Positions 2,701-53,383 of a DNA stretch of 64,000 nt are shown piece after piece. The stretch covers positions 74,636 to 138,635 of the forward strand of contig JBMNLH010000005.1 in the NCBI GenBank assembly GCA_050952625.1. The letters run 5' to 3'. The DNA is from Bacillota bacterium (GTDB lineage: Bacteria; Bacillota; Ch66; Ch109). Position 1 is the first letter of the stretch. Each line of letters starts with the position of its first letter. Both the position numbers and the translations under genes were made by a program. Below the pieces are notes generated by a model. It was given only the letters and a program-made list of their open reading frames with translations, was not told the DNA's origin and made no database searches.

Positions 2701-5026
2701 ATGCCAGACAGAGCCGCAATTTTTGAGTTGGATAATTTTTGTTTGGATAATTATCACGTTAAATTAAATGAGGTGCTGTTTCACAATGCCAATGGGTATA
2801 TCGGGGTGCGTTACGATTTGGAAGAAGGCTATCCGGGCGAATATGATGTGACCCCCAGTCAATATATCAACGGGTTCTATGACTTTGCCAAGTTAGGCCA
2901 GGCGGAAAAATTGTACGGGTTGACAGATGAAAAACAAACCATTTTAAACATTGCGAATACCCAGCCGATCCGGATCACTTTTGAGGATGAGGAGTTCAGC
3001 ATGTTTACCGGCACCGTGCTGGAGAGCCGGCTGCGCCTGGATATGAATCGGGGGGTAACGGTCAGGGAGGTCAAATGGCGTTCGCCCCAGGGGAAAGAGA
3101 TTAAGTTAACGGTTACGCGAATGGCCTCTTTTTATCAACTTCCATTATTTACGATTGAATATGAAGTGGAGCCGTTAAATTTTACCGGCGATGTTGTGAT
3201 TGAATCGGTGCATCAGGGAAATGTGTTAAATTATGTTAATCCGGCGGACCCGCGGATTGCGCAGGAACGGATTCGGTATTTGACCCCCATCAGTTGTGAA
3301 ATCAAAAAGGGGGCGTCTTATATAACCTCTAAAACCTCAAAATCAGGCCTGGAGGTCTGCACCGGCGTCAAAAACCTCTTGCCGCAAGAACATCAGCAGG
3401 AGTTTATTATAGATAATAATGATGCTGTTTGTCGGTTTAATGCCGTCGCTAAACAGCGAAAAAAAATCCGGTTGATCAAGTATGCCGTTTTTTGCGATTC
3501 GATTCGCTACCCGGATTGTCGGCAGCAGGCAGAAACTGAACTGAAGAAGGCTTTATCGGTGCCTTTGGAAGAGTATTACAAGAAGCAAGCCGCTTACCTG
3601 GCGGAATATTGGGATAATTGTCTCGTGGAAATCGATGGGGATGAATCGGTGAATAATGCTATTCGCTACAATTTATACCAATTATTTCAATCAGTGGGCA
3701 AGGACAAGTACTGTAATATCTCCCCGAAAGGATTAAGCGGCGATGGTTATGAGGGGCATTATTTCTGGGATTCCGAGATGTATATCTACCCCTTTTTCAC
3801 GATCACCAATCCGGCCATTACCCGCAAGCTGCTGGAATACCGGTATGCAACGCTTGACCTGGCTCGGGAGAATGCCCGGATATTAGGTCATCAAAGCGGG
3901 GCGCTGTATCCCTGGCGCACGATTATGGGCCGCGAATGCTCCGGGTTTTTCCCGGCCGGTTCGGCCCAGTACCATATCAATGGCGATATTGCCTATGCCA
4001 TTATTGCTTATTATTTAGCGACCAAGGATTTGGCGTTTATTCGAGAAATGGGAGCCGAGATGATTTGGGAAACCGCTCGGCTATGGATTGATGTGGGCAG
4101 TTTTTACGCCGGGAAATTTTACATCAATGACGTCACCGGTCCGGATGAGTACACCTGTATCGTAAATAACAATTATTACACGAATGTGTTGGCGCAATAC
4201 CACTTGACCTGGGCGGTAAAGTTTTACCATCTATTAAAGGCAGCTGGCGGGCTAGCAGATTTGGAACGGAAAATCCAGATTAAAGAGTCGGAAATAGCGC
4301 TTTTTCAGCGAGCGGCTGAAAGCATGTACCTGCCCTACGATGCGCAGTTAAAAATTAATCCGCAGGACGACTCCTTCCTGCAGAAGAAACCGTGGGATCT
4401 GGCCAGTATTCCGCGAGACAAGTTTCCTTTGCTGCTCCATTATCATCCTCTGCATTTATACCGGCACCAGATCTGCAAACAGGCGGATACGGTGATGGCG
4501 CATTTTATCCTGGAAGACGCGCAGTCCCCGGAAACCATCTTAAACTCGTTTAATTACTATGAAAAGATCACGACCCACGATTCTTCGCTGTCCCGGTGCA
4601 TCTTCAGCATTGTGGCGGCCCGGTTGGGGATGGTCGACAAGGCTTACGCCTATTTTCGAGCACACGGTTCGTTTAGATCTGGACAATCTGCATCGGAATA
4701 CGCCAGACGGCATTCATACCGCCAATATGGGCGGTAGTTATATGGCTGTGGTCTATGGCTTTGGGGGGTTCCGGCTGAAAGAGAGCGGCTTCTATTTTGC
4801 GCCGGTTTTACCGGCGGCCTGGACCGCCTATCGCTTCAAACTCCGCCTGGAAGAGAGCCGGATTGCCGTGGAGGTCAAGGAACACGAGTGCGTGTTCAGG
4901 CTGGAGAACGGCCCGGCCATAAAGATATTTGTCTATGGCCAAGAGTACCGGTTAACTGACACGCTGACGGTCGGCCGACAGCCGACAGCCACGGGGACGG
5001 TTCTTGTGGCCGGTAAGTCGCGGTAA
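2701..5026 (+). CDS. GH65 trehalose/kojibiose/maltose phosphorylase; one apparent +1 frameshift near 4655
   Basis: Motifs ANGYIGVR, KGLSGDGYEGHYFWDSE, GPDEY, KQAD and HDSSLS. The C-terminus (DLDNLHRNTPDGIHTANMGG) continues in ORF 4559..5026 after an extra T in a T run. Confidence 0.88.
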
Positions 5027-5405
5027 CATATTAATCCATAACGGATTCGTTTCATGCAGGGTGCAGAGCCGGTTGAGTCTACTCTCGGTAACATACTAAT
5101 CCTTAACGCCCGCCGGCAGCCGGCGGGCAACAAACTGGCCTGCTCAAGTCGCGGTAACATACTGGCCGGTAAGTCGCGTTCCAGCCAAGGGGACGCGTTA
5201 TGTCGTCGAGGTGAGTTTCCAACGAAAAGGGATCTGGGAATAGGGATCTGGCTCGTAACATATTAATCCATATTCGTTATGTCAAAACATGGGCCATGAT
5301 CTATATATCTAGCGGGGATGGGCAACCATCTAACTAGGAGTTAAAGAAGCAGGAATTTCTAAAGCAGGAATATTGTTCAACAAAGAAAGGAACGGTTTCG
5401 GTTGC

Positions 5406-6074
5406 ATGAAGTACCAAGCGATTATCTTTGATTTAGACGGGGTTATCTGCCACACGGACCAGTATCATTATTTGGCCTGGAAACAAATCGCCGATGAGCT
5501 CGAGGTCTACTTTGATGAGCAGATCAATAACCGGCTGCGAGGCGTCAGCCGCCGGGAAAGCCTGGAGATAATCCTGGAAGCCTATCCGGGCCGGCTAACT
5601 GAAGAAGAAAAGACTTATTACACCGAGAAGAAAAATGGACTTTACCGTAGTTTACTGCAAAACATGTCGCCGGCTGATGTCACCGCAGAGGTAAGGGAAA
5701 CCCTGGACCAGCTAAGGTCCCAGGGGATTCTCCTGGCCATCGGCTCCTCCAGCAAAAACGCGAAATCCATCTTAAAACAAATCGGCCTGGAGGATTACTT
5801 CGATGCCGTATCAGACGGGACCAACATTACCCATTCCAAGCCGGATCCGGAAGTGTTTTTAAAAGCCAGTCAGTTTCTAGGGGTTGAACCGCGGTTGTGC
5901 CTGGTGGTGGAAGATGCCAGATCCGGCGTAGAAGCCGCCCTAGCCGCGAACATGGATTGCGCGGCCATCGGCGACGCCACCAAATACAACCTGGCCCAGT
6001 ACAACCTCCAACGTTTCTCCGACTTACTGCAAATCAGCCAATTCAGCCACGGGGACGGTTCTTGTGGCCGGTAA
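5406..6074 (+). CDS. pgmB: Beta-phosphoglucomutase (HAD family)
   Basis: IFDLDGVICHT, RGVSRRESL, KPDPEVFL and VVEDA motifs; adjacent to a GH65 phosphorylase. Confidence 0.9.
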   Translation: MKYQAIIFDLDGVICHTDQYHYLAWKQIADELEVYFDEQINNRLRGVSRRESLEIILEAYPGRLTEEEKTYYTEKKNGLYRSLLQNMSPADVTAEVRETLDQLRSQGILLAIGSSSKNAKSILKQIGLEDYFDAVSDGTNITHSKPDPEVFLKASQFLGVEPRLCLVVEDARSGVEAALAANMDCAAIGDATKYNLAQYNLQRFSDLLQISQFSHGDGSCGR

Positions 6075-6226
6075 AATATGAGACATAGCAATAAAACTCT
6101 CGGGGGCGATTGACGGAATGGGGATTTATCTGCTAGATGGACACCGGGTTTTCCGAAGACACTGATTGCCGAAAATGCTATAATAGATAGCCAACAGAAT
6201 GATACGTGTAAGCGAGGGGTTATTGC

Positions 6227-7281
6227 GTGATCAATCCTGAAAGTTCTCATCACTGTCTTGATCAATTGAAGCATAGAGAATTAGAGCCAGGAAACCAAGC
6301 TGGTAACCTGAAGTACGAAGTGGCTTCCCCAACCTTTAAGGCGATTGCCACTAGCAGCCAAACCAACAGAAACCAGCAACCCAGAAAGAAAGTCCGGAAA
6401 GCGGTTATCCCGGCTGCCGGGCTGGGGACCCGTTTCTCTGCCGGCGACCAAGGCCCAGCCCAAAGAGATGTTGCCGGTTGTTGATAAGCCGGCTATCCAG
6501 TACATCGTCGAAGAGGCAGTTCAGTCTGGGATTGAGGATATTATTATCATCACCGGCCGCGGGAAGCGGGCGATTGAGGATCATTTCGATAAATCTTATG
6601 AGTTGGAGAGCATTCTGGAGGAAAAATGCGATTTCGATAAGCTGCGGGAGATTCGGGAGATTGTGAACCTGGTAGAGATTCACTATATTCGGCAGCGCGA
6701 GCCACGGGGGCTGGGGCATGCCATTTACTGTGCCCGCAAGTTTGTGGGAGATGAACCGTTTGCGGTTTTGCTGGGTGATGATATTGTGGTTTCGGAAACT
6801 CCCTGCTTGCGGCAATTGATTGACTTCTATAATGAGTATGGCGGATCAGTTTTGGGGGTGCAGCCGGTGCCGCAAAGCGAGGTCAGTCGGTACGGGATAG
6901 TTGAATCCATGCCGGATGATTCGATCAAATCTGATCATGCGCAACGCTTGGTGCGGGTTAAGGATCTGAGTGGAGAAACCCCCGATTGAGGAGGCTCCGT
7001 CAAATATTGCGATTTTGGGCCGCTACATCATCCAGCCGGAGGTTTTTAGTTTTTTGGAGAAACAGACCCCCGGGGCCGGCGGCGAAATCCAGCTCACGGA
7101 TGCTTTGCGGGCGTTAAAGAATGTTAGTCCCATGTATGCCTGTTCTTTTAGCGGTAAGCGGTACGATATCGGAACTAAGATGGGTTACCTGGAGGCAACC
7201 GTGGAGATGGCCTTGCGCCGCGAAGACCTGAAGGACGAGTTTGCTAGTTACTTGCGGAACCTGCTGGGAGTAGAGCAGTAG
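6227..7281 (+). CDS. galU: UTP-glucose-1-phosphate uridylyltransferase, split by two apparent single-base insertions (about 6437 and 6970)
   Basis: KAVIPAAGLGTRF / LPATKAQPKEMLPVVDKP / GAGGEIQLTDAL spread over three consecutive frames. True start uncertain. Confidence 0.88.
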
Positions 7282-12219: not shown

Positions 12220-12286
12220 GTGGACAAGTGGGACACGGGGCCTTTTTGCAAACTCCCGATACAACTTCTGAAATGTTTATCTGGAC

Positions 12287-12390
12287 AAAAGACCCCCATT
12301 TCTATAAGTGGGGGTTACCTTGTTTAAACTTCGGGTGGAGTAGAGTCTCCATCTGAAGCCTCGGTGTTCAGCGAAGCTGAACGAGTTCGC
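12287..12390 (+). repeat. Dispersed ~105 bp MITE-like element, family M
   Basis: aagac(t/c)ccc..ttctataag..ggggttacc...aacttc(a/g)ggtggagtagagtctccatctgaag...tgttcagcgaagct.aacgagttc. Full or partial copies at 13544-13577, 14218-14375, 15325-15392 and 48933-49005, all on the + strand and intergenic. Confidence 0.8.
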
Positions 12391-12609
12391 TAGGCCATTC
12401 TAGACACCTTCCCATAGCGAACACCTTCCATAATAATTTTGAATTTTTTAATAATCTAAGATTAATTCTTAGATTATTTTGTTCCGGCAACAATCATCAA
12501 CAAATGTTTGTCCGTGTCCGTGTCCTGTCCCCGTATCCGTATCCGTGTCTGTGTTTGTGTCTGTATCCGTGTCTCGTCCCCGTGTTCCGGTTGGAAATAG
12601 CAATTAAAT

Positions 12610-13527: not shown

Positions 13528-13711
13528 GTTTGCAATAAATTACGCCTTGATGTTCAGCGAAGCTAAGCGAGTTCACTGAGCTGATTCCGTTCGGTCCCCA
13601 GAGTGGTTACCCCTTGGTTATGTTAAGGCATACACTAGAGTGTAGTAATGTGATTAATGTCAATCGCTGGCCTTGTATCAGATTAGAGAAGTTTATCCAG
13701 GGGGGACTATC

Positions 13712-14203
13712 ATGGACTGGGTTTTTCTGGGGAAGAGTTTGTTGGTTATCCTGGGTTTATTTTTGGTCTTTTGGGTTAATTGGAAACTGATTTGGAAGGC
13801 GCAGCGGGAGTCTGGTTCTTATTTGTCAGTTGTTTTATTAATGGTGGTCCAAAACCAGGAGAAGATTATAGAAGGTGTGATTCGGCAGTTGCGTTGGCTT
13901 CGCTTACGTTCGCCGGTTTTTTTTGAATTAGTCGTGGTTGATAGCGGCTCGCGGGATAATACGAACGAAATTTTGCATCGGCTGTGGCGGTGTCAGGAGG
14001 ACTTTAGATTTTACCGATTGGAGGAAACGGACTGCGGGGCTAATCCGCTGGAGGTTGTTCGACGGGATAACTTCCAACAAACAATTTATTTGGTCGAACT
14101 AGACTATTCAGCCTCGCTGGGTCAGGTAGTAAAGGCAATCGATCGGGCCCTGCAGGGAGATTATTCTAACGAAATGGTTAGAATCGTTGATAAGTGGGCC
14201 TAA
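13712..14203 (+). CDS. Membrane-anchored protein with partial GT2 glycosyltransferase-like domain
   Basis: N-terminal TM helix, then VVQNQEKIIEG...ELVVVDSGSRDNTNEIL. Confidence 0.65.
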   Translation: MDWVFLGKSLLVILGLFLVFWVNWKLIWKAQRESGSYLSVVLLMVVQNQEKIIEGVIRQLRWLRLRSPVFFELVVVDSGSRDNTNEILHRLWRCQEDFRFYRLEETDCGANPLEVVRRDNFQQTIYLVELDYSASLGQVVKAIDRALQGDYSNEMVRIVDKWA

Positions 14204-14530
14204 TTTATAGCTGGATCAAAAAGACTCCCGCTTCTGCAGGGGGTTATCCTATTTGAACTTCAGGTGGTCTTTTTTTACCGCTGCCTTGAGTACCCTAGGC
14301 GGGGGGTACCCTATTTGAACTCCAGGTGGAGTAGAGTCTCCAGCCCCGATGTTCGGCGAGGCTAAACGAGTTCATTTTAGGCTATCCGTGAGGTACATTG
14401 CATTTTATTTTAGAATTGTGTAAAATTTATAGAAAAAAGTTTAAAATAAGGCAGATTTAAGGCAGGAATATAGAAAGCTGATGTTGAAATATTCTAATAG
14501 ATTTTAATGTTTTGAAAGGAGAATCTGACC

Positions 14531-15637: not shown

Positions 15638-18112
15638 ATGTCGTCTAATCTCTATCCGTCTTATCAAGTTTATCTGGCCTGGAACAATACTCATTACCGA
15701 ATTTTTATTAGCCATTGGCCAGAACTGGATCTAAAAATCCTCTTTCAGGAGCAAGGGCTGAATAAATTGGGTCTGTTGACTCGACCCCTGCCAATTGGGA
15801 TCGCCCATTATGTTGCCGGCTGGATTGCGTCTGAGACGGAGAGGCGTTTGGCTTTGTTGGCTTCGGCTGATCAGACATCGTTCCCCGGGGTTAAAGCTGG
15901 CGGTTGGCGAAGTTGGTTAATCCGCGGTCAAGAAAGATTGCGTCGTCTAACTAGGACAACTGATTCGGCCAATACCACCGAGTTCGGGAATCTATTGATG
16001 CCGGAAAAAAACGGTCGGGCTGAGTTTGGTCCGGCGTTACTGCACCAGCGTTTTCGGTTGGTTCAAAAAGCCCTTAAATCCTTGGAAGCCGGAGCTTTGC
16101 CCGAAAAACTTGCTTGGGCTGAGTTTAAGCCAAGGATCTTGGTTGTCGGGGACTCAGGGTATGCGGCTTCTGGTGCCGGGCCTTGTTTCTCGGTCGATCC
16201 GGCTGGGTCTGAATCATTGGGTGAGCAGAAAGTTCTGAAGGCTTCAAATGCTCTGGAAGACGCCGGGGAAGCCCCGTTGCTTTCTGCTTACGAACCCGGG
16301 TCGGTAAAATCAATTCAGATAAATCAAGTTTCGGCTGCTTCGGATGCTTTTGCAGCAGCGGCAGTACCGGGAACTAAGGCGATCTTGAGCGAAATATTAG
16401 CGGGCCGGGTGTTGGTGGCCGGAGAAGTCAAGACCATGCTTGCGACTAATGGACTAATATCGGAAGCGGCATCGGGACCGTGGCTGCCTCTCCCTATCCA
16501 AAATATCCTTCAGGTCCTGGCTTTGCGGGGGGAGGTTTGTTTATTGCCGTCGGTAAACCGGAGTCAGCTCGGTGACCCGGTATGTCAGCGGTGCGGCCAG
16601 TCTCGGGGGATTAAGTCTTCGGTCTGTCATTACTGCGGTCGTTTGGCGTGTTATTACTGTGAAGAATGTCTTAATCTGGGTCTGGCGCGGGAATGTTTGC
16701 CGTTAATCGCGATGCCCGGACAAAGTCGCCTTACAGGCTTGCCGGAGACAATCCCGACGCCTCAGGCCTTGTCTCACGCACATCAGGGCTTGCGTCATTC
16801 ATCTCCGGCCTCGCCTCTCGCACCTCAGACTTCGCGTTATTCGCCGCCGGGCCCGCATCTTACCCCTCGAGGTTCGCGTTATTCAGAAATTCAGGCACCG
16901 TATCAAACACCTCCGGTTTCGGGTCCTATCCCAGACGTTTCGGCCCAGAGTCAAGAGATAAGCCAGGAGGAGGGAGACCGGAAAACTACGGGAATTCCAG
17001 CCCCGGTCTGCTTGGAGTTTGCGCTTACCCCGGCCCAGCAGCGAGCAGCAGAAGAGGTTCGGCAGTTTTGGTTATCTGGGAAGCAGGCGGAGTGTTTGGT
17101 TTGGGCGGTCTGTGGAGCGGGAAAAACAGAGGTTGTTTTTTCAGTATTAGCCGAGGTTCTAGCCCGAGGGGGCCGCGTTTTATACGCTATTCCTCGTCGA
17201 GACGTCGTGCGGGAGCTAGAGCCCCGACTGCGGCAGGCTTTTCCGAATTACCGGGTCTTAGGTCTTTACGCTGGGAGCGGCCGCCGGTACGCAGCAGCGG
17301 ATATTTATGTCGCGACTACTCACCAATCCCTGCGGTTTTACCAAAATTTTGACTTGGTTATCCTGGATGAGGTTGATGCCTATCCTTACCGGGATAGTCC
17401 GATGCTGCATTTTGCCGTGCAGCGCGCTCGAAAACCAGAGGGTAAGACCGTGTATCTTACGGCTACGCCAAAGTCAGCCATGCAGCAACTGGCTTTGAAA
17501 GGCGAAATGGGCCTGGTTTATATCCCGGCTCGGCATCATGGTTATCCAGTTCCGGAGCCAGAATTGCTGGCTGAAAGGCAATTGCGTTATCCCCGGACCG
17601 GCCAGGAGTTGGGGCTGCCGCAGACTGTTATTGAATTGATTTATCAAAGCGTGGTCGTTGAGCAGGTCCGGTTGTTTGTTTTTGTTCCCTCTATTTGGTT
17701 GACTGAACAGGTAGCCCGGGCGATAAACCGCGTGGTTGAAAGTGATGATCGGTTTGAGAATAAGAGGGCCAGAAACTGGGCGCAATTCTGTCACGCCCGG
17801 GATCCTTGGCGGGACCAGAAGCGGACCGGTTTTTCCCGGGGAAATTTTCCGATCCTGGTGACGACTACTATCTTGGAGCGGGGTATTACGATCGCCCCGG
17901 TTAATGTGCTGGTACTTTTTGCAGAGTCGGAAAAAATCTTTGATGAGGGGACTTTGGTGCAGATGGCCGGGCGGACCGGTCGAACCGAGGCTTACCCGGA
18001 GGGAAAAGTCTGGCTGGTTGGTGCCTCCGTCAGTCCAGCAATGCGGCAAGCGCGCGACAGAATTCTGGAGATGAATCGCATAGCCAGAGATCGGGGGTAT
18101 TTGAGAGGATGA
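15638..18112 (+). CDS. comFA: ComFA-like DEAD/DEAH-box helicase (competence) with long low-complexity insertions
   Basis: Zn-binding CxxC clusters, WAVCGAGKTE, DEVDAYPY, TTILERGIT and QMAGRTGR. Confidence 0.88.
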   Translation: MSSNLYPSYQVYLAWNNTHYRIFISHWPELDLKILFQEQGLNKLGLLTRPLPIGIAHYVAGWIASETERRLALLASADQTSFPGVKAGGWRSWLIRGQERLRRLTRTTDSANTTEFGNLLMPEKNGRAEFGPALLHQRFRLVQKALKSLEAGALPEKLAWAEFKPRILVVGDSGYAASGAGPCFSVDPAGSESLGEQKVLKASNALEDAGEAPLLSAYEPGSVKSIQINQVSAASDAFAAAAVPGTKAILSEILAGRVLVAGEVKTMLATNGLISEAASGPWLPLPIQNILQVLALRGEVCLLPSVNRSQLGDPVCQRCGQSRGIKSSVCHYCGRLACYYCEECLNLGLARECLPLIAMPGQSRLTGLPETIPTPQALSHAHQGLRHSSPASPLAPQTSRYSPPGPHLTPRGSRYSEIQAPYQTPPVSGPIPDVSAQSQEISQEEGDRKTTGIPAPVCLEFALTPAQQRAAEEVRQFWLSGKQAECLVWAVCGAGKTEVVFSVLAEVLARGGRVLYAIPRRDVVRELEPRLRQAFPNYRVLGLYAGSGRRYAAADIYVATTHQSLRFYQNFDLVILDEVDAYPYRDSPMLHFAVQRARKPEGKTVYLTATPKSAMQQLALKGEMGLVYIPARHHGYPVPEPELLAERQLRYPRTGQELGLPQTVIELIYQSVVVEQVRLFVFVPSIWLTEQVARAINRVVESDDRFENKRARNWAQFCHARDPWRDQKRTGFSRGNFPILVTTTILERGITIAPVNVLVLFAESEKIFDEGTLVQMAGRTGRTEAYPEGKVWLVGASVSPAMRQARDRILEMNRIARDRGYLRG

Positions 18113-19146
18113 AACGGTTTTTGTCGGGCTTATTAGCTAAAATCAGCCGGGACAGTAAATCTGTTTCCGCGTCGGACGATAAACCTGTCCCCATGTCAGG
18201 CGATAGACCTGTCCCTGTGTCCCGCAATAAACCTGTCCTCGTGTCCCGCGATAAACCTATCAGCGTGTCCCAGTGGCTTGATTTAATCTATCCTCCTCCC
18301 AAAACTTGTCCGTTATGCGGGAAGACCTGGTCAAAGCAGCGGGGGGCGGCGGTTTGTGCGCGGTGTATTGGTGAGATTGCGGAGCTTCAGGCGGATATGG
18401 TTGTTTGTCGGCACTGTGGCCGATTCTTGGCAAGGGGATCCGTGGTTAGCAGATCGGGTTTAGCTGATGAATCAGTTCTTTTCTCCCAATATATTGATCA
18501 ATCAGGCAGTCAGGCAAGTGTTCTGACGGTCGAGAATTTTTGCTGTGCTGACTGCCGCCAAAACCCGCCCGCCTTCCAAATGGCCCGGGCGATTGGCCCT
18601 TTTGAAGGCCTGCTGCGTGAGGCGGTGTACCAGCTGAAGTATCAGGGCAAGCTGTCTTTGCGGGAGCCATTGGGTTGGTTGATGGCGGAAGTAATCAGAA
18701 AAGAGTGGGCAATAAAAGGGCCGCCGCTGGTCGTACCGGTCCCTCTTCACCCTAACCGGCTGGCGGAACGCGGTTTTAACCAGGCTGAATTACTGGCAAC
18801 AGCAGTGGCTCGTGAATTAGGCTGGCGATTGCATAATCAGTTGTTAATCAGGCAGGTGGATACCGTTTCCCAGACTCGGCTTAACCGGTCAGAACGCTTA
18901 ATTAACCTGCAGGGTGCCTTTGCGGTGCGCGAGTCAGACAGGACCGTTCGTCAGGAGATGATAAATGCTGGTTGTGCGGCGGAGAAACAGGTGCGCGAGC
19001 CAGACAGGATCGTTCGTCAGCCGATTGTCTTAGTTGATGATGTTTTGACGAGCGGTACAACGAGTGAGGAGTGTGCCCGGGTGCTGCAGCAGGCCGGCTA
19101 CGGCCCGGTGATGGTGATCACGATCGCTACGGGTAAAATTGCCTAA
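18109..19146 (+). CDS. comFC: ComF/ComFC family protein (double zinc ribbon + PRTase)
   Basis: CPLC..CARC, VPVPLH..RLAERGFNQAE and LVDDVLTSGTT; overlaps the comFA stop (ATGA). Confidence 0.9.
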   Translation: MKRFLSGLLAKISRDSKSVSASDDKPVPMSGDRPVPVSRNKPVLVSRDKPISVSQWLDLIYPPPKTCPLCGKTWSKQRGAAVCARCIGEIAELQADMVVCRHCGRFLARGSVVSRSGLADESVLFSQYIDQSGSQASVLTVENFCCADCRQNPPAFQMARAIGPFEGLLREAVYQLKYQGKLSLREPLGWLMAEVIRKEWAIKGPPLVVPVPLHPNRLAERGFNQAELLATAVARELGWRLHNQLLIRQVDTVSQTRLNRSERLINLQGAFAVRESDRTVRQEMINAGCAAEKQVREPDRIVRQPIVLVDDVLTSGTTSEECARVLQQAGYGPVMVITIATGKIA

Positions 19147-19239: not shown

Positions 19240-19662
19240 ATGGATTTTCGCAACTGTCCGCGGTGTGATCAGTTATTTCGTTATGCTGGCCGCAACCTTT
19301 GCCCGGCTTGTATTCGGGCTGAGGATGAGGAGTACGAGAAGGTGCGGGTTTTCGTTCGGGACCATCCAGGAATGACTATTCCTGAGGTCAGTAAGGCGAC
19401 CGGCGTAAGTTCCGAAAAGATCATCCGTTTTTTGCGTGATGGAAGGTTATTGTCAAAAGGATTAGATATGGGGGGGAGTTTGACTTGCGATAGCTGCGGG
19501 ACTCACATAGATGAGGGGACTTTATGCCTGCGGTGTCGAGAGGAATTAGCTAGCCAATTTGGAAGCAAACTTAATCTTCTCCAACCAAAAAAGACGCCTC
19601 CTCCCGGGAAGTCGTTCAGCCAGCATAAAATGCATACCGCCCAAACGAAAAAGCCCTACTAG
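19240..19662 (+). CDS. Flagellar-region protein YvyF/TIGR03826 family
   Basis: NCPRC...LCPAC, EVSKATGVS..IIRFLRDGRL and a second Zn ribbon; conserved position between comF and flgM. Confidence 0.85.
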   Translation: MDFRNCPRCDQLFRYAGRNLCPACIRAEDEEYEKVRVFVRDHPGMTIPEVSKATGVSSEKIIRFLRDGRLLSKGLDMGGSLTCDSCGTHIDEGTLCLRCREELASQFGSKLNLLQPKKTPPPGKSFSQHKMHTAQTKKPY

Positions 19663-19989
19663 TATTGTTGCGGTTATGTTTAGGGATGATGTTTTCACGC
19701 TAATTCCAGAGGGGAATCTCGCTACTAGTTATCGCTGCGGTTATGTCTAGGGCCTAACCATGGATGAAACATTAAATCAGTATCGGACAGTTAAAAATCG
19801 GGGTCTAAGGCTGATTAAGCTCGTGGTGCTGAGCAAATCAGCGGTAATTTGCTTTTTAGCGACTAATTGGAGTCGGCTGGGGTATCGAAAGATAAAATAA
19901 GAGACTGATAAGATTATTCGCATTTACTTAGGTTATTGTACTTTAACCGGCTAGATTATCTGGTCCGTGGACGAGGGGGAATAAGGATT

Positions 19990-24928: not shown

Positions 24929-25496
24929 GGAAACAGTGGGTTGAGTAGGCGAGTTTTAACGTTCGCTGGGACTATGTTATAATACCCGGGGTGGGCTATA
25001 ACTAAGTGTGTCTGATAAATATATGAAACAAAAAATGATATAGCAGCGAATGGCCTTCCTACCAGGGGGCTTTTTGTGTTTTCAGGAGCAACCGGAGGGA
25101 CGGTTCTTCCGGCCGGAGCAACCGTCCAACCGGAGGGACGCTGCCGGAGAAATGAATCTTCCGGTTGAGGCCGCAAGCGATTTCGTTCTTCTTCCGGTTG
25201 AGGAACCGGTTAATCCTTTAAAAATAACTACACTCGTGTTATCTTTCTGGCGAATAAGAGCACTGTTAATCTAACCATATTCTAATACGATTGGCATGCT
25301 AGACTGAGAGTTATAATAATACGATGATAAAACGATTATTAAACAATAATAAACAACAATAAAATAACAATCATAATACAATAAAAGTTTATAATGTAAG
25401 CCGGATAATCGCTAATTTTTATAAAACTACAGCGATCATGATTTTTCATGTTTCGATGGTGCTAAGGTTATAGTTATCGGTTATAGGGGGGATAAA

Positions 25497-34525: not shown

Positions 34526-35147
34526 ATAACCGGGGGGACGGTTCTTCCGGCCGGTTGTTGCCACGGGGAAGGTTTTTCCGGCCGGGATAAAATTGGCACC
34601 GGTCGGTTGTGGGACAGGTTAAGTTCTTTAAGAACAATTACGCGCGTGTGATAACTCGGTCTGCCGGCTAGACGGGGAACGAACCTTGTTGCTTCGGATA
34701 GGACTTGTCTCCCCCTCTAGCCCCGCCATACGCTAACTGGGAACGAACCTTGTTGCTTCGGACAGGCATCAAACTCGTCCGGCGAGCTCAAACAGCGATA
34801 CCAGCTGATCCTCAGCCAGCTCTGTTCCTTGTGTAAGCTGCCAATCGCTGACCTGCGTTAAACCATGGCTCGATCATGGTTTTTCCTGTTCTGGACAGCG
34901 TACGAAGCGGCATGGGGGTCTAATAAGACGTTGTTTCTATCAGTCACATGGTCGGGGTAAAGGAGTAGAAACGGATTCTGGGGTTTAATAAGATGTTTTT
35001 CTATCAGTTTTGAAAGTTGGGCAATTGAGTGCATGAACTCAAAAATAGGTCTTTGGTCCCGATCAAACTGCTAGTATTTTGACTGTTTTTGTCGTATTAT
35101 ACATTGCAGGGTATTAAGATTAATAATTAACGTGGATAATATTGTAA

Positions 35148-35248
35148 CAAAATAAATGGGCAGCGTATTCGAAAGAATACTACGCAAAGCTACGGGTCTA
35201 AGGTTTTAGGTCTTAACCTGAGGCTATGATCGCCGGGCTGCATTACAC
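35148..35248 (+). ncRNA. Cyclic di-GMP-I (GEMM) riboswitch
   Basis: GGGCAGC-GTATTC-GAAA-GAATAC-TACGCAAAGCTACGGGTCTAAGG...CTATGATCGCCGGGCTGC, with GNRA tetraloop and receptor; lies upstream of an MCP gene. Confidence 0.88.
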
Positions 35249-35285
35249 CATCGCTTTAATTCACTGGACATGAATTAAAGGTCTG

Positions 35286-35310
35286 CCCGTTTGGATAAAC
35301 GGGTTTTTTT
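35286..35310 (+). terminator. Riboswitch expression-platform terminator
   Basis: cccgttt-ggat-aaacggg followed by T7. The left arm CTGCCCGTTT is complementary to aptamer bases AAATGGGCAG. Confidence 0.8.
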
Positions 35311-35542
35311 AATAACTACTTAAACACTGGAGGTGAAACACTACGGCTGTCTAGCAGTATCTTGATCTACTCTTACTTTTTCTCGGGGATAGACGATATC
35401 CATGCCACATCTGTATAGCAATATCATTGATCTACTCTTACTCCTACGGAACTTCGGCTTCCACGCATACAAAAAGTCTAGCAACTTTATGATCATGATT
35501 GACTCTTACTGGGTTTAAAATTAAATAAGGGAGAGGAATATT

Positions 35543-37534
35543 TTGTTTAATCTAGGGAAAATGAGCGTTAAGTTCAAACTCCTGCTACCTGTCTTAATAT
35601 TGGTCATATTATGTTTGAGTATTATGGGGGTTTTAAATTATCAGGCGGCCAGAAATCTTTTAACGACTCAGATGGGGGAGCAAATCTTAAAAATAGCTGT
35701 GGCACAGTCAGAGAATATTGATAACTGGCTGAAGATCCGGCTGGCTGAGGTTGAGACTCTGGCCAATACTGGGATAGTTAGGAGCATGGATCTAACCCAG
35801 ATCGAACCGGGACTGGTTAAACACCATGAGCGTTTGCAGGAATACTATGAACTGCTGTACGTTGCCGAGCCGAATGGTATCTGCCACCTTAGCTCCGGAG
35901 GGGAGAATAACATTGCAGACCGGGACTACTTCCAGCAGGCTATGGCCGGTAAAACACTGGTGTCGGACCCGGTAATCTCCAAAGCCACCGGCAACCCGAT
36001 CGTGGTCGCGATCGCGCCAATTAAAAATGACAGCGGACAGGTTATCGGGGCTTTCGGGGGAGTTGTGCTGATTGATACCTTGAACCGGATGGTTTTAGAC
36101 GTGAAGGTCGGCCAAACCGGTTATGCCTATATGATGCAGCGGGACGGACTAACCCTGGTTCACCCGGATAAGGACTGGGTCCTGAAACGAAATCCGCTCC
36201 AAGAAGCGGGCACGGATAAATCCTTGGTCGATATCCTGACGCGCATGACTAAGGGTGAGACCGGTCACGGGTATTATACCTGGGAGGGTGACGAAAAACT
36301 GATCAGCTTTGCTCCCGTGAAAACAACCGGGTGGGGTTTGGCAGTTACGGTACCCAGCCAAGAAATCAATGAAAGTGTTAGTACCCTGGCCAAGAATACG
36401 CTAATTATTGGGCTGGTTTGTCTGGTGGTGCTGGGCTTAGCCATCTTCTTTATGGTACAGCTAACCTTAAAACCATTACAACGGCTAGCTGAAGTGAGCA
36501 GCCGAATCGCTGAGGGAGATTTAGCGCAGCAGGTAGAAGTAAAGTCGACCGACGAGATCGGCCAATTGGCGGAGAACTTTAACGGCATGGTCAATAACCT
36601 GCGCCGTTTAGTAGAGCGGATCAGTACTATGACCGGGCAAGTGGCGGATGCCTCGGAGCAACTAGCTGAGGCAGCCGGGGAGTCCGGGAAAGCGACAGAG
36701 CAGGTCGCCCTCAGTATGGGTGAATTGGCCAAAGGAACCGCTAATGAGGCAGAACTTACCCAGGATACTGCCCGAGTGGTGAATGATATGGCCCAAGCCC
36801 TGCGGCAGGTAGAAAGTGGAGCCCAACAGGTTAACGGGGTCTCCCGGCAGCTAAAAACTGTCGTTGAGGAAGGAATGGAGGCCGTCAGTGATCTGGGCAG
36901 TAAAATGGCGGAAAGTGTTCGGTCTTCTGAAGGGGTCGGCGTAGCCATTCAGGATCTAGATCAGTGCTCCAAAGAGATCGGACAAATAGTTGAGGTCATC
37001 ACCAATATTGCCGGCCAAACTAATTTGCTGGCCTTGAACGCAGCCATAGAGGCGGCTCGAGCGGGTGAACAAGGCCGCGGCTTTGCGGTGGTTGCTGATG
37101 AGGTGCGGAAATTGGCTGAGGGTTCGGCTCAGGCTGCCAATCAGATTGCCCAGCTTATCCAGGATATTCAGAAAGGAACCGAAACCGCAGTCAATGAGGT
37201 AACCAACGCCATCGCAGTGATTAAGGCGCAGGAGCAGGCGGTGAGCGTCACTGAGAACTTGTTCGGCAATGTTGAAAAAGGAGCCGGATCCATTGAATTG
37301 GAGATAAATTCTGCTATCGCGGCCATTAATCAGTTGAGCACCCAGGCTCAGCGAATCGTCCAGGCCGTGGAAAGCATCTCGGCGATTACCCAGCAATCAG
37401 CTGCCTCCGCTGAAGAAGTTTCAGCCATTACCGAGGAGCAAACTGCTTCCGCCCAGATGATTGCCGCCTCGGCGCAAAACATCGCTGATCTGGTTAAAGA
37501 TTTAGAAAAAGCAGTCGCCCAATTCAAACTCTAG
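35543..37534 (+). CDS. Methyl-accepting chemotaxis protein (dCache-HAMP-MA)
   Basis: Two TM segments, DRDYFQQA..G...VSDP and [35 protein letters not shown]. Confidence 0.95.
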
Positions 37535-37799
37535 CCACATCAGCCCAGTAGCCCAGCAGCCAAAGGGACGGTTCTTGTGGCAGGGAGCAGGGGGGACGGG
37601 CTAGCCAAAGGGACGGTTCTTGTGGGAAGGAAGCCGGGACGACTCCCCGACTTCCTCTATGAAACAGATGACCGAATGCAGCTGGATGATCGAGCAGCTG
37701 ACCAAGCTGCCCCCGACTTCCTCATATGAAACAGATAACCAAGACCAAGGAATCTTCAGTAAGCCAAAACCAGGTTCCCCAGCTTCCTCTTATGAAACT

Positions 37800-39405: not shown

Positions 39406-39774
39406 TATGAAACTATGAAAACAGATATGTATTTTGAGCAGAAAAGAACGAACTTATTGGTTTTGCTTGACACTCCTCAAGGCTGAAGTCAGGCACTTGA
39501 CGACCTATTTTGCTAATAGTAACCAACTTGTCCGAATTCAGTTTCCGGAGTAACTGAGCAGTGAAAAAGGAAATCGAGCAGATGTTGAGGAAGGCAACTT
39601 CCAGGAATTAACAAAGCAGAAGTCTAAAAGGCCTGGTAGAGTATTAATCTATCGGGTCATTTGTTTTTCAAAGGAGGCACGAAGATTAAGGGGATGCGAG
39701 CACCATCCTGGTTTCTCCCTCAAGATTCAGGCGGTAGGAGAACGGTTCTTGTGCTCCCATATCCCCTTATCCCT

Positions 39775-39857
39775 TTATCTCTCTATCTCTCTATTTCTCT
39801 ATCTCTCTGTTTCTCTATCTCTCTGTTTCTCTATCTCTCTGTTTCTCTATCTCTCTA
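39775..39857. repeat. Pyrimidine-rich tandem repeat (16-bp unit TTTCTCTATCTCTCTG, about 4-5 copies) abutting a triple REP cluster
   Basis: Read directly from the sequence. Confidence 0.85.
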
Positions 39858-40088
39858 CGAGAACCGTCCCCGTGGCTGGGTGCATCTCTCCATCTCGCCA
39901 CGAGAACCGTCCCCGTGGCTGCCGCGAGAACCGTCCCCTTGGCTGGGTTCGCCTGCTTTTCTTTTTCCAGGTGTTAGCTGAGCAAAGATTTCATATACTT
40001 GTTTTAGGTAATAATCCAGAAGCAAAAGGGATGTTACAAGCGGCGAAGACGGGTTTGGGGCCGGTTGTATGATTAAGGGGGTAATAAT

Positions 40089-44691: not shown

Positions 44692-44699
44692 TTAGTCTA

Positions 44700-47482: not shown

Positions 47483-47497
47483 AATTGGGTGAATTAA

Positions 47498-49281: not shown

Positions 49282-51195
49282 GTGTATGTGGTGAAGGCAT
49301 TTCGTTTGCCTGCAACTGACTTGGCTGCGTTTATCGAACGGTTGGCCGGTCAGTATACGATCCTTGGGCCAGTGCCCCGAGGCCCAGGAGCCGTCTTTGG
49401 TGAAGTCAAGACTGCGGACCAGCTTAAGCTTGATTTTGGGCAGACATTCTATTCCCCGAAAAAGTATTTTCATCCCCCGGTGCAGACTCTGATTACTTTT
49501 CAAGACCGTCAAATAGTCGAAAAGGCCGGGGAAGCCGATGAATCGATCAATCCGCGAATTATTTTCGGGATACGTCCTTGTGACATGAACGCCTTAACCA
49601 ACCTGGACCAGGTTTTTGGCGAGGCCTATCCGGATCCTTACTACCAACGGCAAAGAAAAAATACGCTAATTGTGGCACTAAACTGCAATCAACCTTGTAA
49701 GAACGGTTTTTGCACTTCGTTTAATACCGGTCCGGCAGCCGAAAAAGGGTATGACCTGGCCTTAACTGACCTGGGAGACACCTATTTGGTAGAGGTGGGC
49801 AGTGAAGCCGGACAAGCCTTGGCAGCTGGCCTGACGCCGGCGACTGAGGCAGACCAAACCGCAGCAAAGCAAGTGATTGACTCCTGCCGGCAGAGCATGA
49901 CTCGGCGGATTGAGGTCGAAAACCTGGGTGATTTTATGCACCAACGGGTTGACCATCCGCACTGGCAGGAACTGAAAGAGAAGTGCTTGGCTTGCGGCAG
50001 TTGTACTAATGTTTGTCCCACTTGTTTTTGTTTTGCGGTGCAGGATCAGACTGATCTGACTCTCCAAAATGGAGTGCGGGAGCGGGTTTGGGATTCCTGC
50101 CAATACTATAAGTTTTCTCGGGTAGCCCTGGACCACGTTTTCCGGCCGGACCGAGCCGCCCGGATCAAACAGCGGTTGTTCCATAAATTTGCTTATTATG
50201 AGCAGCAGTTTGACGTGGTTGGTTGTGTCGGCTGCGGGCGTTGCGTGTCGACCTGTATCGTTAAGATTGATCCGGTCGAGGTCGTGGCGGCCCTGCAAGA
50301 GGGAGTGCCGGAGCAAAAGCCAGCGCAGCGTTTTCGGCCGACTCGCCGGGGTAGTTGTCCCAGTGAGAATCCCTATACCCCCTATCCAGCGGTTATTAAG
50401 GCGATTAAACAGCAGACCAAGGATACCGCGACCTATACTCTGGCCTTCACGGATGAGCAATTACGGCAAGAGTATAGTTTTGACCCGGGCACCTTTAATA
50501 TGGTCAGTGTGTTTGGCGTTGGCGAAGCCCCGATTTCGATCAGTTCCGGGGCTGACGAAAAAGACTGTTTTGAACATACCATTCGGGCGGTCGGCAATCT
50601 AACCAATTTCTTGACCACCCTGAAAGTAGGCGATACCGTTGGGATTCGCGGGCCTTATGGCTACGGCTGGCCAGTTGAAGAAATGAAAGGCAAGAACGTG
50701 CTGGTCGTGGCCGGCGGAATTGGGCTGGCACCCCTGCGACCGGTGCTCAAGCATATTATTAATCGTCGGCCGGAATACGGTAAGTTAGAAATCCTGTATG
50801 GGGCGCGAAACCCCCAAGAAATGCTGTTCACCGATGAGTTCAGCCAGTGGCGCACCTGGCCGGATACCAATCTGCTGTTGACGGTCGATTCTCCAGCCGG
50901 GACTGACTGGACCGAGAATGTCGGCGTGGTGACCACCCTCTTTAACCAGATGACGGTGGAGCCGGAGAATACCATTGTGGTAACCTGCGGCCCCGGGATC
51001 ATGATGAAGTTTGCGGTCCGCGATTTGCTTGCCCGCGGTTTTAAACCGGAGCAGATTTTTGTATCGCTGGAACGTCGGATGAGCTGCGGGATTAAAAAAT
51101 GCGGTAACTGCCAGATTGGCCCGCTGTTTGTTTGTCAGGATGGCCCGGTCTTCCGTTATTCAGAGGTTAAAGACCTGCCGGAAGATATTTTTTAG
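49282..51195 (+). CDS. Group 3b [NiFe] hydrogenase (sulfhydrogenase) fused beta (Fe-S) + gamma (FAD/NAD) subunit
   Basis: FGIRPCD, CLACGSCTNVCPTCFC and CVGCGRC, then GEAPISIS, RGPYG, AGGIGLAP and ERRMSCGIKKCGNC in one ORF. Confidence 0.9.
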   Translation: MYVVKAFRLPATDLAAFIERLAGQYTILGPVPRGPGAVFGEVKTADQLKLDFGQTFYSPKKYFHPPVQTLITFQDRQIVEKAGEADESINPRIIFGIRPCDMNALTNLDQVFGEAYPDPYYQRQRKNTLIVALNCNQPCKNGFCTSFNTGPAAEKGYDLALTDLGDTYLVEVGSEAGQALAAGLTPATEADQTAAKQVIDSCRQSMTRRIEVENLGDFMHQRVDHPHWQELKEKCLACGSCTNVCPTCFCFAVQDQTDLTLQNGVRERVWDSCQYYKFSRVALDHVFRPDRAARIKQRLFHKFAYYEQQFDVVGCVGCGRCVSTCIVKIDPVEVVAALQEGVPEQKPAQRFRPTRRGSCPSENPYTPYPAVIKAIKQQTKDTATYTLAFTDEQLRQEYSFDPGTFNMVSVFGVGEAPISISSGADEKDCFEHTIRAVGNLTNFLTTLKVGDTVGIRGPYGYGWPVEEMKGKNVLVVAGGIGLAPLRPVLKHIINRRPEYGKLEILYGARNPQEMLFTDEFSQWRTWPDTNLLLTVDSPAGTDWTENVGVVTTLFNQMTVEPENTIVVTCGPGIMMKFAVRDLLARGFKPEQIFVSLERRMSCGIKKCGNCQIGPLFVCQDGPVFRYSEVKDLPEDIF

Positions 51196-51210
51196 AGGGG
51201 AGGGTGTGAG

Positions 51211-51978
51211 ATGGCGAAACCGAAAATTGCGGTTTTCAAATTCAGCTCCTGTGCTGGCTGCCAGCTTTCGATCTTGAATCTTGAGGAGCATTTACTGGAT
51301 ATCGTAGGAGCCGTTGATTTAAGTTACTTTGTCATGGCCAAACGAGAAAATTTGGCCGGGCCATATGATATCGGTCTGGTGGAAGGGGCCGTAACTACCA
51401 CTCGCGAAGTGGAAGAGTTAAAGCAAATTCGGAAAGAGTGCCAGTTGCTGGTCGCTTTGGGTACTTGCGCTTGTTTCGGCGGGGTCCCTTCAATCAAGAA
51501 CTTTATCGGTACCCAGAAGGAAATAGAGGCGCGGGTCTACACCCACCTATGGGATATTAATTCTATTCCCGCCTATGGGATTGACTATTATGTGCCGGTT
51601 GATGCCTACCTGCGCGGTTGTGCGGTAGATCTCGGTGAATTGCTGGAACTGCTCCGTTGTGCTCTGCTGGGAGTCAGTCCCCGCTATATAACCCATGCCG
51701 TTTGCGGCGAGTGCAAGTTAAAAGAGAATGGCTGTCTGTTGTTAGGCAAAGGTCAGCCTTGTATGGGTTCAGTCACTGCCGGCGGCTGCGGGGCTCTGTG
51801 TCCCAGTCTCAATCGAGCCTGTGAGGGCTGCCGCGGTCCATCAGACGACTGCAATGCGGCCTCATTGGCCCGGGTTTTCCACGAACAACTGGGTCTGACC
51901 AAGGATGACGTGGTCCGGAAGTTCCGCAAGTATGCTGGTAATACACCGCAGTTTAGGAAGGGGGCGGAGGCACTGTGA
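51211..51978 (+). CDS. [NiFe] hydrogenase small (delta) subunit
   Basis: KFSSCAGCQ, VEGAV, GTCACFGG and VCGECK...CMG..T.GGCGALCP. Confidence 0.9.
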   Translation: MAKPKIAVFKFSSCAGCQLSILNLEEHLLDIVGAVDLSYFVMAKRENLAGPYDIGLVEGAVTTTREVEELKQIRKECQLLVALGTCACFGGVPSIKNFIGTQKEIEARVYTHLWDINSIPAYGIDYYVPVDAYLRGCAVDLGELLELLRCALLGVSPRYITHAVCGECKLKENGCLLLGKGQPCMGSVTAGGCGALCPSLNRACEGCRGPSDDCNAASLARVFHEQLGLTKDDVVRKFRKYAGNTPQFRKGAEAL

Positions 51979-53288
51979 GCGATCGCAAGATTTTTGTAGG
52001 GTATGTCGCTCGGGAAGAAGGCGATGGTGCCCTGGACCTGGTTATCTCGGCCGAGGGTAAGGTTAAGGAAGCCCGGTATAAAATCTGGGAGGCACCCCGA
52101 TTTTTTGAGTCTTTCCTGGTTGGCCGCAAATACGATGAGGTGCCGGAGTTGGTGCAGCGAATCTGCGGTATTTGCCCGCATCCGCACAATCTAGCCGCGG
52201 CCCAGGCAGTTGAGCGGGCGATGGGGATTGAGGTCAGTGAGCAGACTCGTCTGCTGCGTCGGCTGCTACTAGTCGGGGACTGGATCATGAGCCATTCCTT
52301 GCACGTCTTTTGCCTGGCCGCCCCGGACTATTTGGGTTATGAAAGTGTCATCAGCATGGCCGGGAATCCAGAACTGCTACCGGTGGTCCAAAAAGCCCTG
52401 CAGTTCAAGCGGTTGGGGAATGATATGAGCGTCCTCTTAACCGGACATGAGATTCAGAACCGCACCTCTGTGGTCGGCGGGTTTACAGCGGTGCCGGCTG
52501 GTGCGGATTTAAGGAAGATCCGGGAACGGCTGCTGGGAATTAAGGAATTTGCCCTGGAAGCGACGCAACTGACCAAGGATCTGTTCTCAGCTGCCCCTTA
52601 TCCGGAGTTGGTGCGGAAGTGCGAGCACGTGGCTCTTCATTCGCCTAAAGAATACGCGGTAGAGGCGGGACGGCTGGTCTCGACCGAGGGATTGGATATC
52701 TCGGATTGGGAATATCCGGAGTGGCTGATTGAAAGCCATGTCCCTGGCAGTAACGCCAAACACGCCATCATTCGGGGGCGGGATTCTTTCTTGGTTGGCC
52801 CGTTGGCTCGGGTAAACCTTAATTTTGATCAGTTGTCCGCTGATGCTCGGGCAGTAGCGGCTCAAGTCGGTTTTGTCGCTCCAAACTTTAACCCGTACAT
52901 GAGTATTGTGGCCCGGTGCATTGAACTGGTGCACGCGATTGATGAGGCGGTCCAGATCATTGATCAGTTGGGTAATCCCAAGTATGAAGAACCGAAATAC
53001 ACCATCCGGGCTGGGGAGGGGTATGCGGTAACCGAGGCTCCGCGTGGCATTTGCTGCCACGGTGGTCGGATTGATAAGGACGGGGTGGTTCAGCAGTGGG
53101 ATATCGTGGCCCCCACCGCGCGTAACGTCTACAACATTGAAAAAGACCTGAATGAGTTTGTCCCCAAGCTGCTGGATTTGTCAGATGAGGAACTAGCCTT
53201 GAAGTGCGAGATGCTGATCCGCAGCTATGACCCTTGTCTGTCCTGCTCAGTGCATTCGATCAAGGTCCGGGTGCATCGAGAGCAGTAA
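51975..53288 (+). CDS. [NiFe] hydrogenase large (alpha) subunit, group 3b
   Basis: L1 RICGICP, EAPRG and L2 DPCLSCSVH plus a cleavable C-terminal extension. Confidence 0.93.
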   Translation: MSDRKIFVGYVAREEGDGALDLVISAEGKVKEARYKIWEAPRFFESFLVGRKYDEVPELVQRICGICPHPHNLAAAQAVERAMGIEVSEQTRLLRRLLLVGDWIMSHSLHVFCLAAPDYLGYESVISMAGNPELLPVVQKALQFKRLGNDMSVLLTGHEIQNRTSVVGGFTAVPAGADLRKIRERLLGIKEFALEATQLTKDLFSAAPYPELVRKCEHVALHSPKEYAVEAGRLVSTEGLDISDWEYPEWLIESHVPGSNAKHAIIRGRDSFLVGPLARVNLNFDQLSADARAVAAQVGFVAPNFNPYMSIVARCIELVHAIDEAVQIIDQLGNPKYEEPKYTIRAGEGYAVTEAPRGICCHGGRIDKDGVVQQWDIVAPTARNVYNIEKDLNEFVPKLLDLSDEELALKCEMLIRSYDPCLSCSVHSIKVRVHREQ

Positions 53289-53383
53289 GAAGTGGTAAAT
53301 GCCTGCTCACTCTACGAACCGGTCGTCCGGGACGGTACAGCGGGAGCAGTAAGAAGGTTCGCTAATCGCTAATCTAGGTTATA

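Follow-up and report, generated by a model that had tools for sequence, protein, structure and literature searches.

What process writes a direct repeat of about 30 bp around a unique insert of about 36 bp into one ordinary locus after another of a bacterial chromosome? The question is raised by a 64,000-nucleotide stretch of a Bacillota bacterium (GenBank assembly GCA_050952625.1, contig JBMNLH010000005.1), here called the window, which corresponds to positions 74636–138635 of contig C5 in the genome under study (G000). Nine loci in the window share this geometry, and an earlier reading of the sequence alone, the original prediction, had attributed them to a promiscuous Cas1-type integrase or to an unknown enzyme with the same ruler. 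We consider it very probable that the genome's own type I-B CRISPR adaptation module, namely Cas1–Cas2, probably together with Cas4, left them behind as scars when it integrated spacers off target. Judged from comparisons of genome sequences, the decisive evidence is the insertion polymorphism found among relatives. G000 measures 2.91 Mb in nine contigs, is 96% complete and is probably metagenome-assembled; the sequencing runs that contain it are bioreactor and digester metagenomes.

All nine loci were confirmed by gap-tolerant local alignment, as blocks of 23–36 bp with 85–96% identity and start-to-start distances of 62–66 bp. A direct-repeat search recovered seven of the nine as two- or three-copy families with a spacing of 62–68 bp and missed those at 34915 and 37645, where the copies differ by a 1-nt indel. 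The weaker elements (the third copy of the locus at 5015, and the loci at 53270 and 19656) proved real but more diverged; the original prediction had already named 5015 and 53270 as weaker. Three loci (5018, 35347, and 37645) consist of three copies and two mutually different inserts, forming small neo-arrays. Tandem Repeats Finder (TRF) reported no array with a period of 62–68 bp at any of the nine loci, and the repetition thus does not extend to the inserts. The loci are as follows in window coordinates, together with one target that is occupied only in G001, a genome of the same genus (78% complete, 92–98% DNA identity to G000).

5018–5163: neo-array with two different inserts (5044–5082 and 5109–5148); copies 5018–5043, 5083–5108 and 5149–5163 (partial); 5018/5083 identical at 23/26 positions at 65 bp, 5083/5149 at 14/15 (partial) at 66 bp.
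5319–5346: unoccupied target; a single 28-bp copy in G000, two copies around a 37-bp insert in G001.
14239–14329: 29-bp copies 14239–14267 and 14301–14329, 26/29 identical, period 62 bp; insert of 33 bp.
18924–19020, forward strand: copies 18924–18954 and 18990–19020, 29/31 identical, period 66 bp; insert 18955–18989 (35 bp).
19656–19752: copies 19656–19685 and 19722–19752, 27/31 identical with one gap, period 66 bp; insert of 36 bp.
34667–34766: copies from 34667 and 34732, 33/36 identical with one gap, 65 bp apart, with an ungapped core (34675–34702 and 34739–34766, 27/28 identical, 64 bp apart); insert of about 33–36 bp.
34915–35008: copies 34915–34944 and 34980–35008, 27/30 identical, period 65 bp; insert of 35 bp.
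35347–35510: neo-array with two unrelated inserts; copies 35347–35377, 35411–35442 and about 35492–35510; 35347/35411 identical at 29/32 positions at 64 bp, 35423/35492 at 17/20.
37645–37798: neo-array with two unrelated inserts of about 36–37 bp; copies 37645–37673, 37711–37740 and 37777–37798; 37645/37711 identical at 28/30 positions at 66 bp, 37711/37777 at 19/22 at 66 bp.
53270–53356: copies 53270–53292 and 53334–53356, 20/23 identical, period 64 bp; insert of about 41 bp as scored.

The same geometry is found across the whole genome. G000 was compared with its own copy shifted by d, for each distance d. Without masking, the histogram of distances had a large peak at 63–67 bp with harmonics, mostly derived from true CRISPR arrays. 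The four true arrays (C2:154854–162989, continuing into C3:1–3853, as well as C1:125399–127100 and C1:142085–143270) were then masked, self-periodic blocks were removed, and ungapped blocks of 22–34 bp with a score of at least 13 (+1/−1.5) were counted. The masked genome contained 2, 4, 14, 6, 9, 5, 2, and 3 blocks at d = 62–69, 45 in total, whereas the distances d = 70–140 yielded 35 altogether, or 0.49 per distance. The expectation over the eight distances is 3.9 (Poisson p ~1e-31), and the genome-wide peak that was to be looked for as a check on the original prediction is therefore present outside the true arrays. Three of the 45 spaced repeats belong to a multicopy hairpin family resembling repetitive extragenic palindromic (REP) elements and were set aside, leaving 42 loci; junction and block-length statistics were taken from the 24 best-defined loci (48 ends).

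The edges of these blocks are sharp. Within the block, identity at the same offset was 0.89; over the adjoining 30 nt it was 0.23 on one side and 0.25 on the other, which shows that the units have the form A-insert-A and, as the original prediction had held, are not decayed tandem duplications of their flanks. The duplicated sequence had no other genomic copy in 34 of the 45 loci. With two to four copies per locus, 85–100% identical and specific in sequence to that locus, these loci do not have the makeup of functional CRISPR arrays. Nor do they resemble transposons or miniature inverted-repeat transposable elements (MITEs), whose inserts would be multicopy: no two of the 42 inserts match each other, and only two have a match elsewhere, in each case to a single site of the genome. 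Two longer A-insert-A loci were also seen, one at C4:21998–22111 (39 + 36 bp, perfect copies, in a repetitive coding region) and one at C4:32046–32154 (37 + 35 bp, 36/37 identical, including a terminator-like hairpin); these may stem from the class with 36-bp repeats or may be unrelated.

The peak was compared with that in a control genome, G025, which has two Cas1 genes and arrays with periods of 65–67 and 70–75 bp and of which the first 1.2 of 2.88 Mb were examined. Outside three 20-kb pieces that contain the arrays, only three blocks occurred at d = 62–69, all with periods divisible by 3, against about 18 expected at the density of G000. The peak is thus general neither to bacterial DNA nor to every genome with a similar array.

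G000 encodes a CRISPR–Cas system with the matching ruler. Its native array has a 30-bp repeat and at least 179 spacers; spacer lengths of 36, 35, 37, and 34 bp occur 87, 43, 21, and 8 times, respectively, among these 179, so that 159 of the 179 fall within 34–37 bp. The array ends in degenerate repeats on C2 and in a short leader on C3, after which the minus strand encodes cas2, cas1, cas4, cas3, cas5, cas7, an open reading frame (ORF) of 603 residues, and cas6, which together form a type I-B operon. The 603-residue ORF had no family match and is of the size of a large subunit. Cas1 (C3:4459–5295) scored 357.6 bits against the type I-B Cas1 model (cut-off 304.1), Cas2 scored 36.5 bits (cut-off 24.5), and Cas4 scored 62.8 bits, slightly below its cut-off of 65. 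The Cas1 of this operon was the sole homologue in a six-frame search of G000, and the type I-B ruler of 30 + 36 bp guessed in the original prediction is accordingly the one that G000 possesses.

G000 also carries the effector genes of type III-A (csm) and type III-B (cmr), at C1:118104–127100 and C1:131984–143270. Next to each set lies an array whose repeat is 36 bp long; the repeats of the two arrays differ at a few positions, and neither set has an adjacent cas1. Presumably, these systems depend on the type I-B Cas1–Cas2. Within the native array, several spacers and blocks of spacers occur in duplicate (C2:155482–161305), which indicates that recombination within arrays is active in this lineage. 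The native repeat pattern, with up to three mismatches allowed, had no match in G001 or G025; given the completeness of G001, this is not evidence of its absence there.

The comparison with relatives distinguishes insertion from other origins most directly. Among 19 G000 loci that were compared, five were clean single-copy sites in relatives, nine were shared, and five were uninformative owing to a larger indel or the lack of an alignment. At the five single-copy sites, the relative carries precisely one copy and the insert is absent, so that the empty sites anticipated by the original prediction do exist. Those in G001, with matching flanks on both sides, are window 34915, C7:5191, C5:49800, and C1:247322; 64 bp are missing in G001 at C7:5191, 66 bp at C5:49800, and 66 bp at C1:247322. 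The empty 34915 site is also consistent with a Logan contig from run X9, in which position 34931 is joined to 34996 and 64 nt are skipped (side 40, depth 5.1). This was the only joint used among the contigs mapped to the window, the others being REP-mediated or large replacements; stretches lacking cover were likewise left out of account. The opposite polarity was found at 5319–5346, where an event of 28 + 37 bp is occupied only in G001, as seen in a 28-nt overlap of two alignment blocks and a 65-bp gap on the window side. At the six loci bounded by empty sites, the duplication and insert lengths are 31/35, 30/35, 28/36, 29/37, 32/34, and 28/37 bp. Their means, 29.7 and 35.7 bp, compare with 30 and 36 bp in the native array, and both the duplicated target and the insert thus have the lengths of an off-target scar at all six.

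The shared loci are window 5018, 14239, 19656, 35347, and 53270, together with C1:1487051, C5:56130, C4:89539, and C4:384393. The 5018 locus lies without large indels in one alignment block that spans window 420–5346, and the 35347 locus lies in a segment (34980–37545) that aligns 2566 nt to 2566 nt without indels. The uninformative loci are window 34675 and 37645, C1:1497471, C1:246189, and C4:105641. The 37645 region could not be aligned in G001, and a 362-nt block (34528–34889) is missing there, so that no clean empty site exists for the 34667 locus. Family-level relatives have only about 70% DNA identity, and intergenic loci are not comparable with them for this reason.

At the locus in the ComF-like gene (18924), a metagenome contig (L010; 1078 nt, about 95% identical DNA) has exactly one copy and lacks the 66 bp. 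The same contig carries copy 1 of the 19656 locus and the first 30 nt of its insert, up to the contig end. The 90% cluster of the ComF-like protein includes a fragment, P0122, with a single copy. In an alignment of 13 ComF-like homologues, the loop is short in 9 of the 12 outside the species cluster, including the closest (P0003), and P0004, P0007, and P0020 have unrelated long insertions there. The short form in P0003 and in most of the outside homologues indicates that the single copy is ancestral. A full-length protein with 99% identity, P0002, differs at two residues, both in copy 2 (18990–19020), which renders its two copies identical; this difference from P0001, the G000 protein, suggests gene conversion between the copies or local hypermutation.

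Several sites appear to have been hit more than once. In G001, the 14239 locus (L022; G001 C252, 2150–2370) has four repeat copies and three inserts, and a paralogue of this intergenic element in G000 (C4:38040–38140) is single-copy and lacks an insert. The first and the third of the three inserts in G001 are alike, meaning that recombination inside neo-arrays must occur. At C7:5191, a young event of 28 + 36 bp sits in the insert that separates two older repeats of about 30 bp (L105; G000 C7, 5150–5315) and is thus nested; the older repeats lie about 69 bp apart in G001. The re-hit loci, of which the window has three, the four-copy 14239 locus of G001, and the nested C7:5191 locus suggest that certain sites are favoured and that the hits are not random. 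The suggestion that the divergence between copies reflects the age of the event was only weakly borne out: the perfect pair at C7:5191 is absent from G001, as expected of a young event, but the perfect pair at C5:56130 is common to both genomes.

The distribution of the scars relative to genes bears the mark of a selection filter. Seven of the 42 loci lie inside ORFs of at least 150 amino acids, and the period is a multiple of 3 at every one of them, compared with 8 of the 35 remaining loci. Seven loci overlap a stop codon, and 27 lie over no long ORF. The event at 18924 is in frame within the ComF-like gene (18109–19146) and adds 22 residues, and two in-frame events occur within one UvrD-type helicase gene. 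Where a stop codon is involved, copy 1 keeps the end of the reading frame intact, for example at 5018, 53270, and C5:56130. Copy 1 of the 5018 locus overlaps the stop codon of the ORF at 4559–5026, and copy 1 of the 53270 locus carries the final codons and the stop codon of the ORF at 51975–53288. The 19656 locus is of the same kind, its copy 1 spanning the stop codon of the ORF at 19240–19662, but this ORF is shorter than 150 amino acids. The 14239 locus is intergenic, downstream of the ORF at 13673–14203. The 35347 neo-array is located between a cyclic di-guanosine monophosphate (c-di-GMP)-I riboswitch (35149–35245; 62.8 bits, gathering score 35) and the start, at 35543, of a 663-amino-acid ORF. 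GC (guanine–cytosine) skew places the terminus near C1:1.31 Mb and the origin near C4:185 kb; loci were found near both, and no simple relation to either was found by this measure.

Other repeats accompany these loci in the window. The REP-like hairpin element, with a conserved loop around GGGACGGTTCT, occurs at 289–390, 4990–5012, 25095–25120, 34528–34587, 37558–37631, and 39844–39947; a query of 22–31 nt from it has 23–30 other genomic copies, and it caused several false joints in the contigs mapped to the window. The second copy of the 34667 locus is the start of an element of about 150 nt (34732–34885), which has several copies in G001 at about 80% identity and a mapped-contig depth of 127 at 34753, and whose motif recurs at 53478–53500 and beside C4:89539. 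The ComF-like gene contains, in its N-terminal part, a 24-nt coding tandem repeat of four copies (18156–18275), which encodes a repeat rich in proline, valine, and serine. A repeat element of about 116 nt at 12271–12393 has about 40 copies at 73–91% identity in G001 and may be a MITE or a small-RNA family, and a pyrimidine-rich tandem repeat of 8-nt and 16-nt units (39752–39864, about 11 copies) adjoins hairpin elements.

The inserts are not local in origin. Within 3 kb, matches to the 42 inserts did not exceed the 10–14 nt attributable to chance, and none of the inserts had a source there. Two of them copy spacer-sized pieces from elsewhere in G000, one matching a site inside mnmE on contig C4 at 30/33 nt and the other matching C2:35780–35813 at 32/34 nt, and in both cases the flanks of the source are unrelated. 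The native spacers had no usable protospacers within G000. Searches of viral contigs with 22-mers from three inserts gave no match, and 22-mers from two native spacers were equally unmatched, so that the negative result for the inserts is uninformative about a foreign origin.

The ends of the duplications show a preference at the first base. At 23 of the 48 ends this base is G, whose background frequency is 0.245 (binomial p 3.6e-4), and 18 of the 24 loci have at least one end that starts with G. The commonest positional 4-mer is GCGG, lying across the junction as GC|GG at 5 of the 48 ends, and a count that high for any positional 4-mer was reached in 21 of 2000 random sets. The native repeat also starts with GCGG, but there the junction falls in front of these four bases (leader|GCGG), so that the register of the motif is shifted by 2 nt. 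One candidate explanation of this shift, that the spacer imports the first two bases of the repeat (GC), was rejected on finding that the oriented inserts do not end in GC. The idea that the targets are disguised copies of the native leader–repeat was likewise set aside, the signal being weak: of 40 positions, 15.5 matched on average, compared with 14.9 at random sites (p 0.019). According to a published study, Cas1–Cas2 of P. furiosus integrates in vitro at off-target G/C positions 30–31 bp apart and strongly prefers G; the sites are only about 43% identical to the repeat, and integration has a geometry of a 30-bp repeat and a 37-bp spacer (PMC6698737). By analogy, the scars in G000 appear to fit this off-target behaviour.

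Taken together, these features would be explained if an integrase loaded with a prespacer of about 34–37 bp attacked the ordinary chromosome rather than the leader-proximal repeat. Two staggered strand transfers about 28–32 bp apart, followed by gap filling, would duplicate the target and convert A into A-insert-A. Such events would survive only where they are harmless, namely between genes, across a stop codon, or in frame (63 or 66 bp) in tolerant loops. Renewed hits at some sites would generate neo-arrays with two or three spacers, and the copies would later diverge or vanish through recombination between them.

A number of observations weigh against this explanation. Cas1–Cas2 is named as the responsible enzyme by inference from sequence. 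No source was found in G000 for 40 of the 42 inserts, and no protospacer adjacent motif (PAM) could be derived, the two self-derived inserts sharing no flank motif. The ruler is not exact: the commonest scar period is 64 bp rather than the native 66 bp, and the duplications range over 26–32 bp instead of a fixed 30 bp, with 28 bp the commonest block length among the 24 best-defined loci. Two points described above belong here as well, namely the shifted register of GC|GG and the weak similarity of the targets to the native leader–repeat. The polarity of the change, insertion as opposed to precise deletion, was established from outgroups at the ComF-like locus only, and the model does not account for the confinement of the P0002 differences to copy 2. 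The two similar inserts at the 14239 locus of G001 call for recombination in addition to integration. Finally, the clustering of the loci, with 11 of the 45 on C5 (4.8% of the genome) and none in C1:605–1355 kb, is not predicted by the model.

Some of these points would suit a different enzyme that measures out the same lengths, for instance a Cas1-like casposase or an integrase that went unrecognised. The duplications are looser than in the native array, and the junction motif does not keep the register of the native one. Nevertheless, G000 has a single Cas1 homologue, and the insert and duplication lengths match its native array. To our knowledge, the insertion of unique pieces of about 36 bp is not a property of any transposase or casposase. 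Another enzyme is therefore unlikely, and whereas the original prediction of Cas1-type off-target integration is supported, its alternative of an unknown enzyme is not needed, although enzymology alone could exclude it.

An origin as minisatellites or decayed tandem duplications of a unit of about 65 bp, of which a constrained core remains recognisable, is less likely still and can be regarded as largely refuted. It would accommodate the variable copy number at 14239 (two in G000, four in G001), the two similar inserts there, and the duplicated spacer blocks in the native array. However, tandem duplication yields A-S-A-S rather than A-S-A, and the identity directly outside A is random, with no TRF array of 62–68 bp and with inserts that differ from one another. 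At the empty sites, the insert is wholly absent, and two inserts come from distant loci. Slippage also gives no reason for a distance of 62–69 bp, and G025 has no such peak outside its arrays.

A third possibility, that selection maintains the paired copies about six helical turns apart because they function, for example as RNA elements or protein-binding sites, seems highly improbable. Many loci do have a position upstream of a gene or close to the end of one, and one locus is found between a riboswitch and a start codon, but most of the duplicated sequences (34/45) are unique to their locus, some loci lie within coding sequences or across stop codons, and their presence or absence varies among close relatives. 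An assembly or binning artefact, which the nine contigs and the probable metagenomic origin of G000 might suggest, can be dismissed for practical purposes, because the loci recur in the independent assemblies G001 and L010 and in Logan contigs from four separate studies.

If off-target integration by the type I-B system is accepted, a broader interpretation can be put forward tentatively, with rather more doubt than confidence: that it acts in this lineage as a regular mutational process, which remodels intergenic regions, adds in-frame insertions of 21–22 residues to proteins (ComF-like, UvrD-type), and exposes, at favoured sites that are hit again, several stages in the birth of an array (one, two, and three spacers, together with a nested event). 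Its cause would then be a relaxed target specificity of the integrase or the loss of a fidelity factor, and the regional clustering would reflect a previously undescribed effect of chromosomal context on integration. The approximately 42 scars constitute a natural record of occupied and empty alleles in both directions, of serial hits, and of a selection filter. This record makes it possible to test how often adaptation machinery damages its own genome, which sequences it prefers off target, and whether this is a route by which new arrays arise. It also reveals a source of in-frame protein insertions of 21–22 residues that would be missed by ordinary annotation and presumably by CRISPR finders.

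Processes of this kind are known from other systems. Nivala, Shipman, and Church (2018, Nat Microbiol) reportedly described off-target spacer integration that creates neo-CRISPR loci in E. coli, and Shmakov et al. (2020, CRISPR J) are said to have proposed that isolated or orphan arrays arise from off-target spacer acquisition. Off-target integration and neo-CRISPR loci are described in E. coli overproducing Cas1–Cas2 (PMC7054753), the evidence for natural off-target integration is described as circumstantial, from two other species, and its frequency as unclear (bioRxiv 10.1101/148544), off-target acquisition is given as one proposed origin of isolated arrays (PMC13142298), and ectopic acquisition in Streptococcus thermophilus is described as integration at an internal repeat within the CRISPR array (PMC7999890). 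In a full-text search, with most subscription journals outside its coverage, we found no report of many such scars in one natural genome.

The scars in G000 resemble the neo-CRISPR loci of E. coli in that a spacer-sized fragment is inserted at a non-CRISPR site with a target duplication of repeat length and in that renewed hits start arrays. They differ in belonging to a native type I-B system, in their number (about 42 fixed scars in 2.9 Mb), and in their looser duplication length, as well as in the empty sites in relatives and the in-frame protein insertions. With P. furiosus Cas1–Cas2, they share the geometry, the paired attacks about 30–31 bp apart, the preference for G, and a partial resemblance to the repeat. 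That system was a plasmid assay with purified archaeal proteins, whereas in G000 the products have become fixed in the chromosome of a bacterium and have passed through a selection filter. The route of birth proposed for isolated arrays, away from cas genes, is the same as that considered here. However, isolated arrays can be recognised by CRISPR finders and usually have repeats like those of the cas-linked array, whereas the G000 loci have two to four copies of a locus-specific repeat made of host sequence, which standard finders would miss. Ectopic acquisition in S. thermophilus likewise occurs away from the leader-proximal repeat but stays inside the array. Compared with these systems, the scars in G000 represent a known mechanism, but in a different subtype, in a natural setting, and on a much larger scale.

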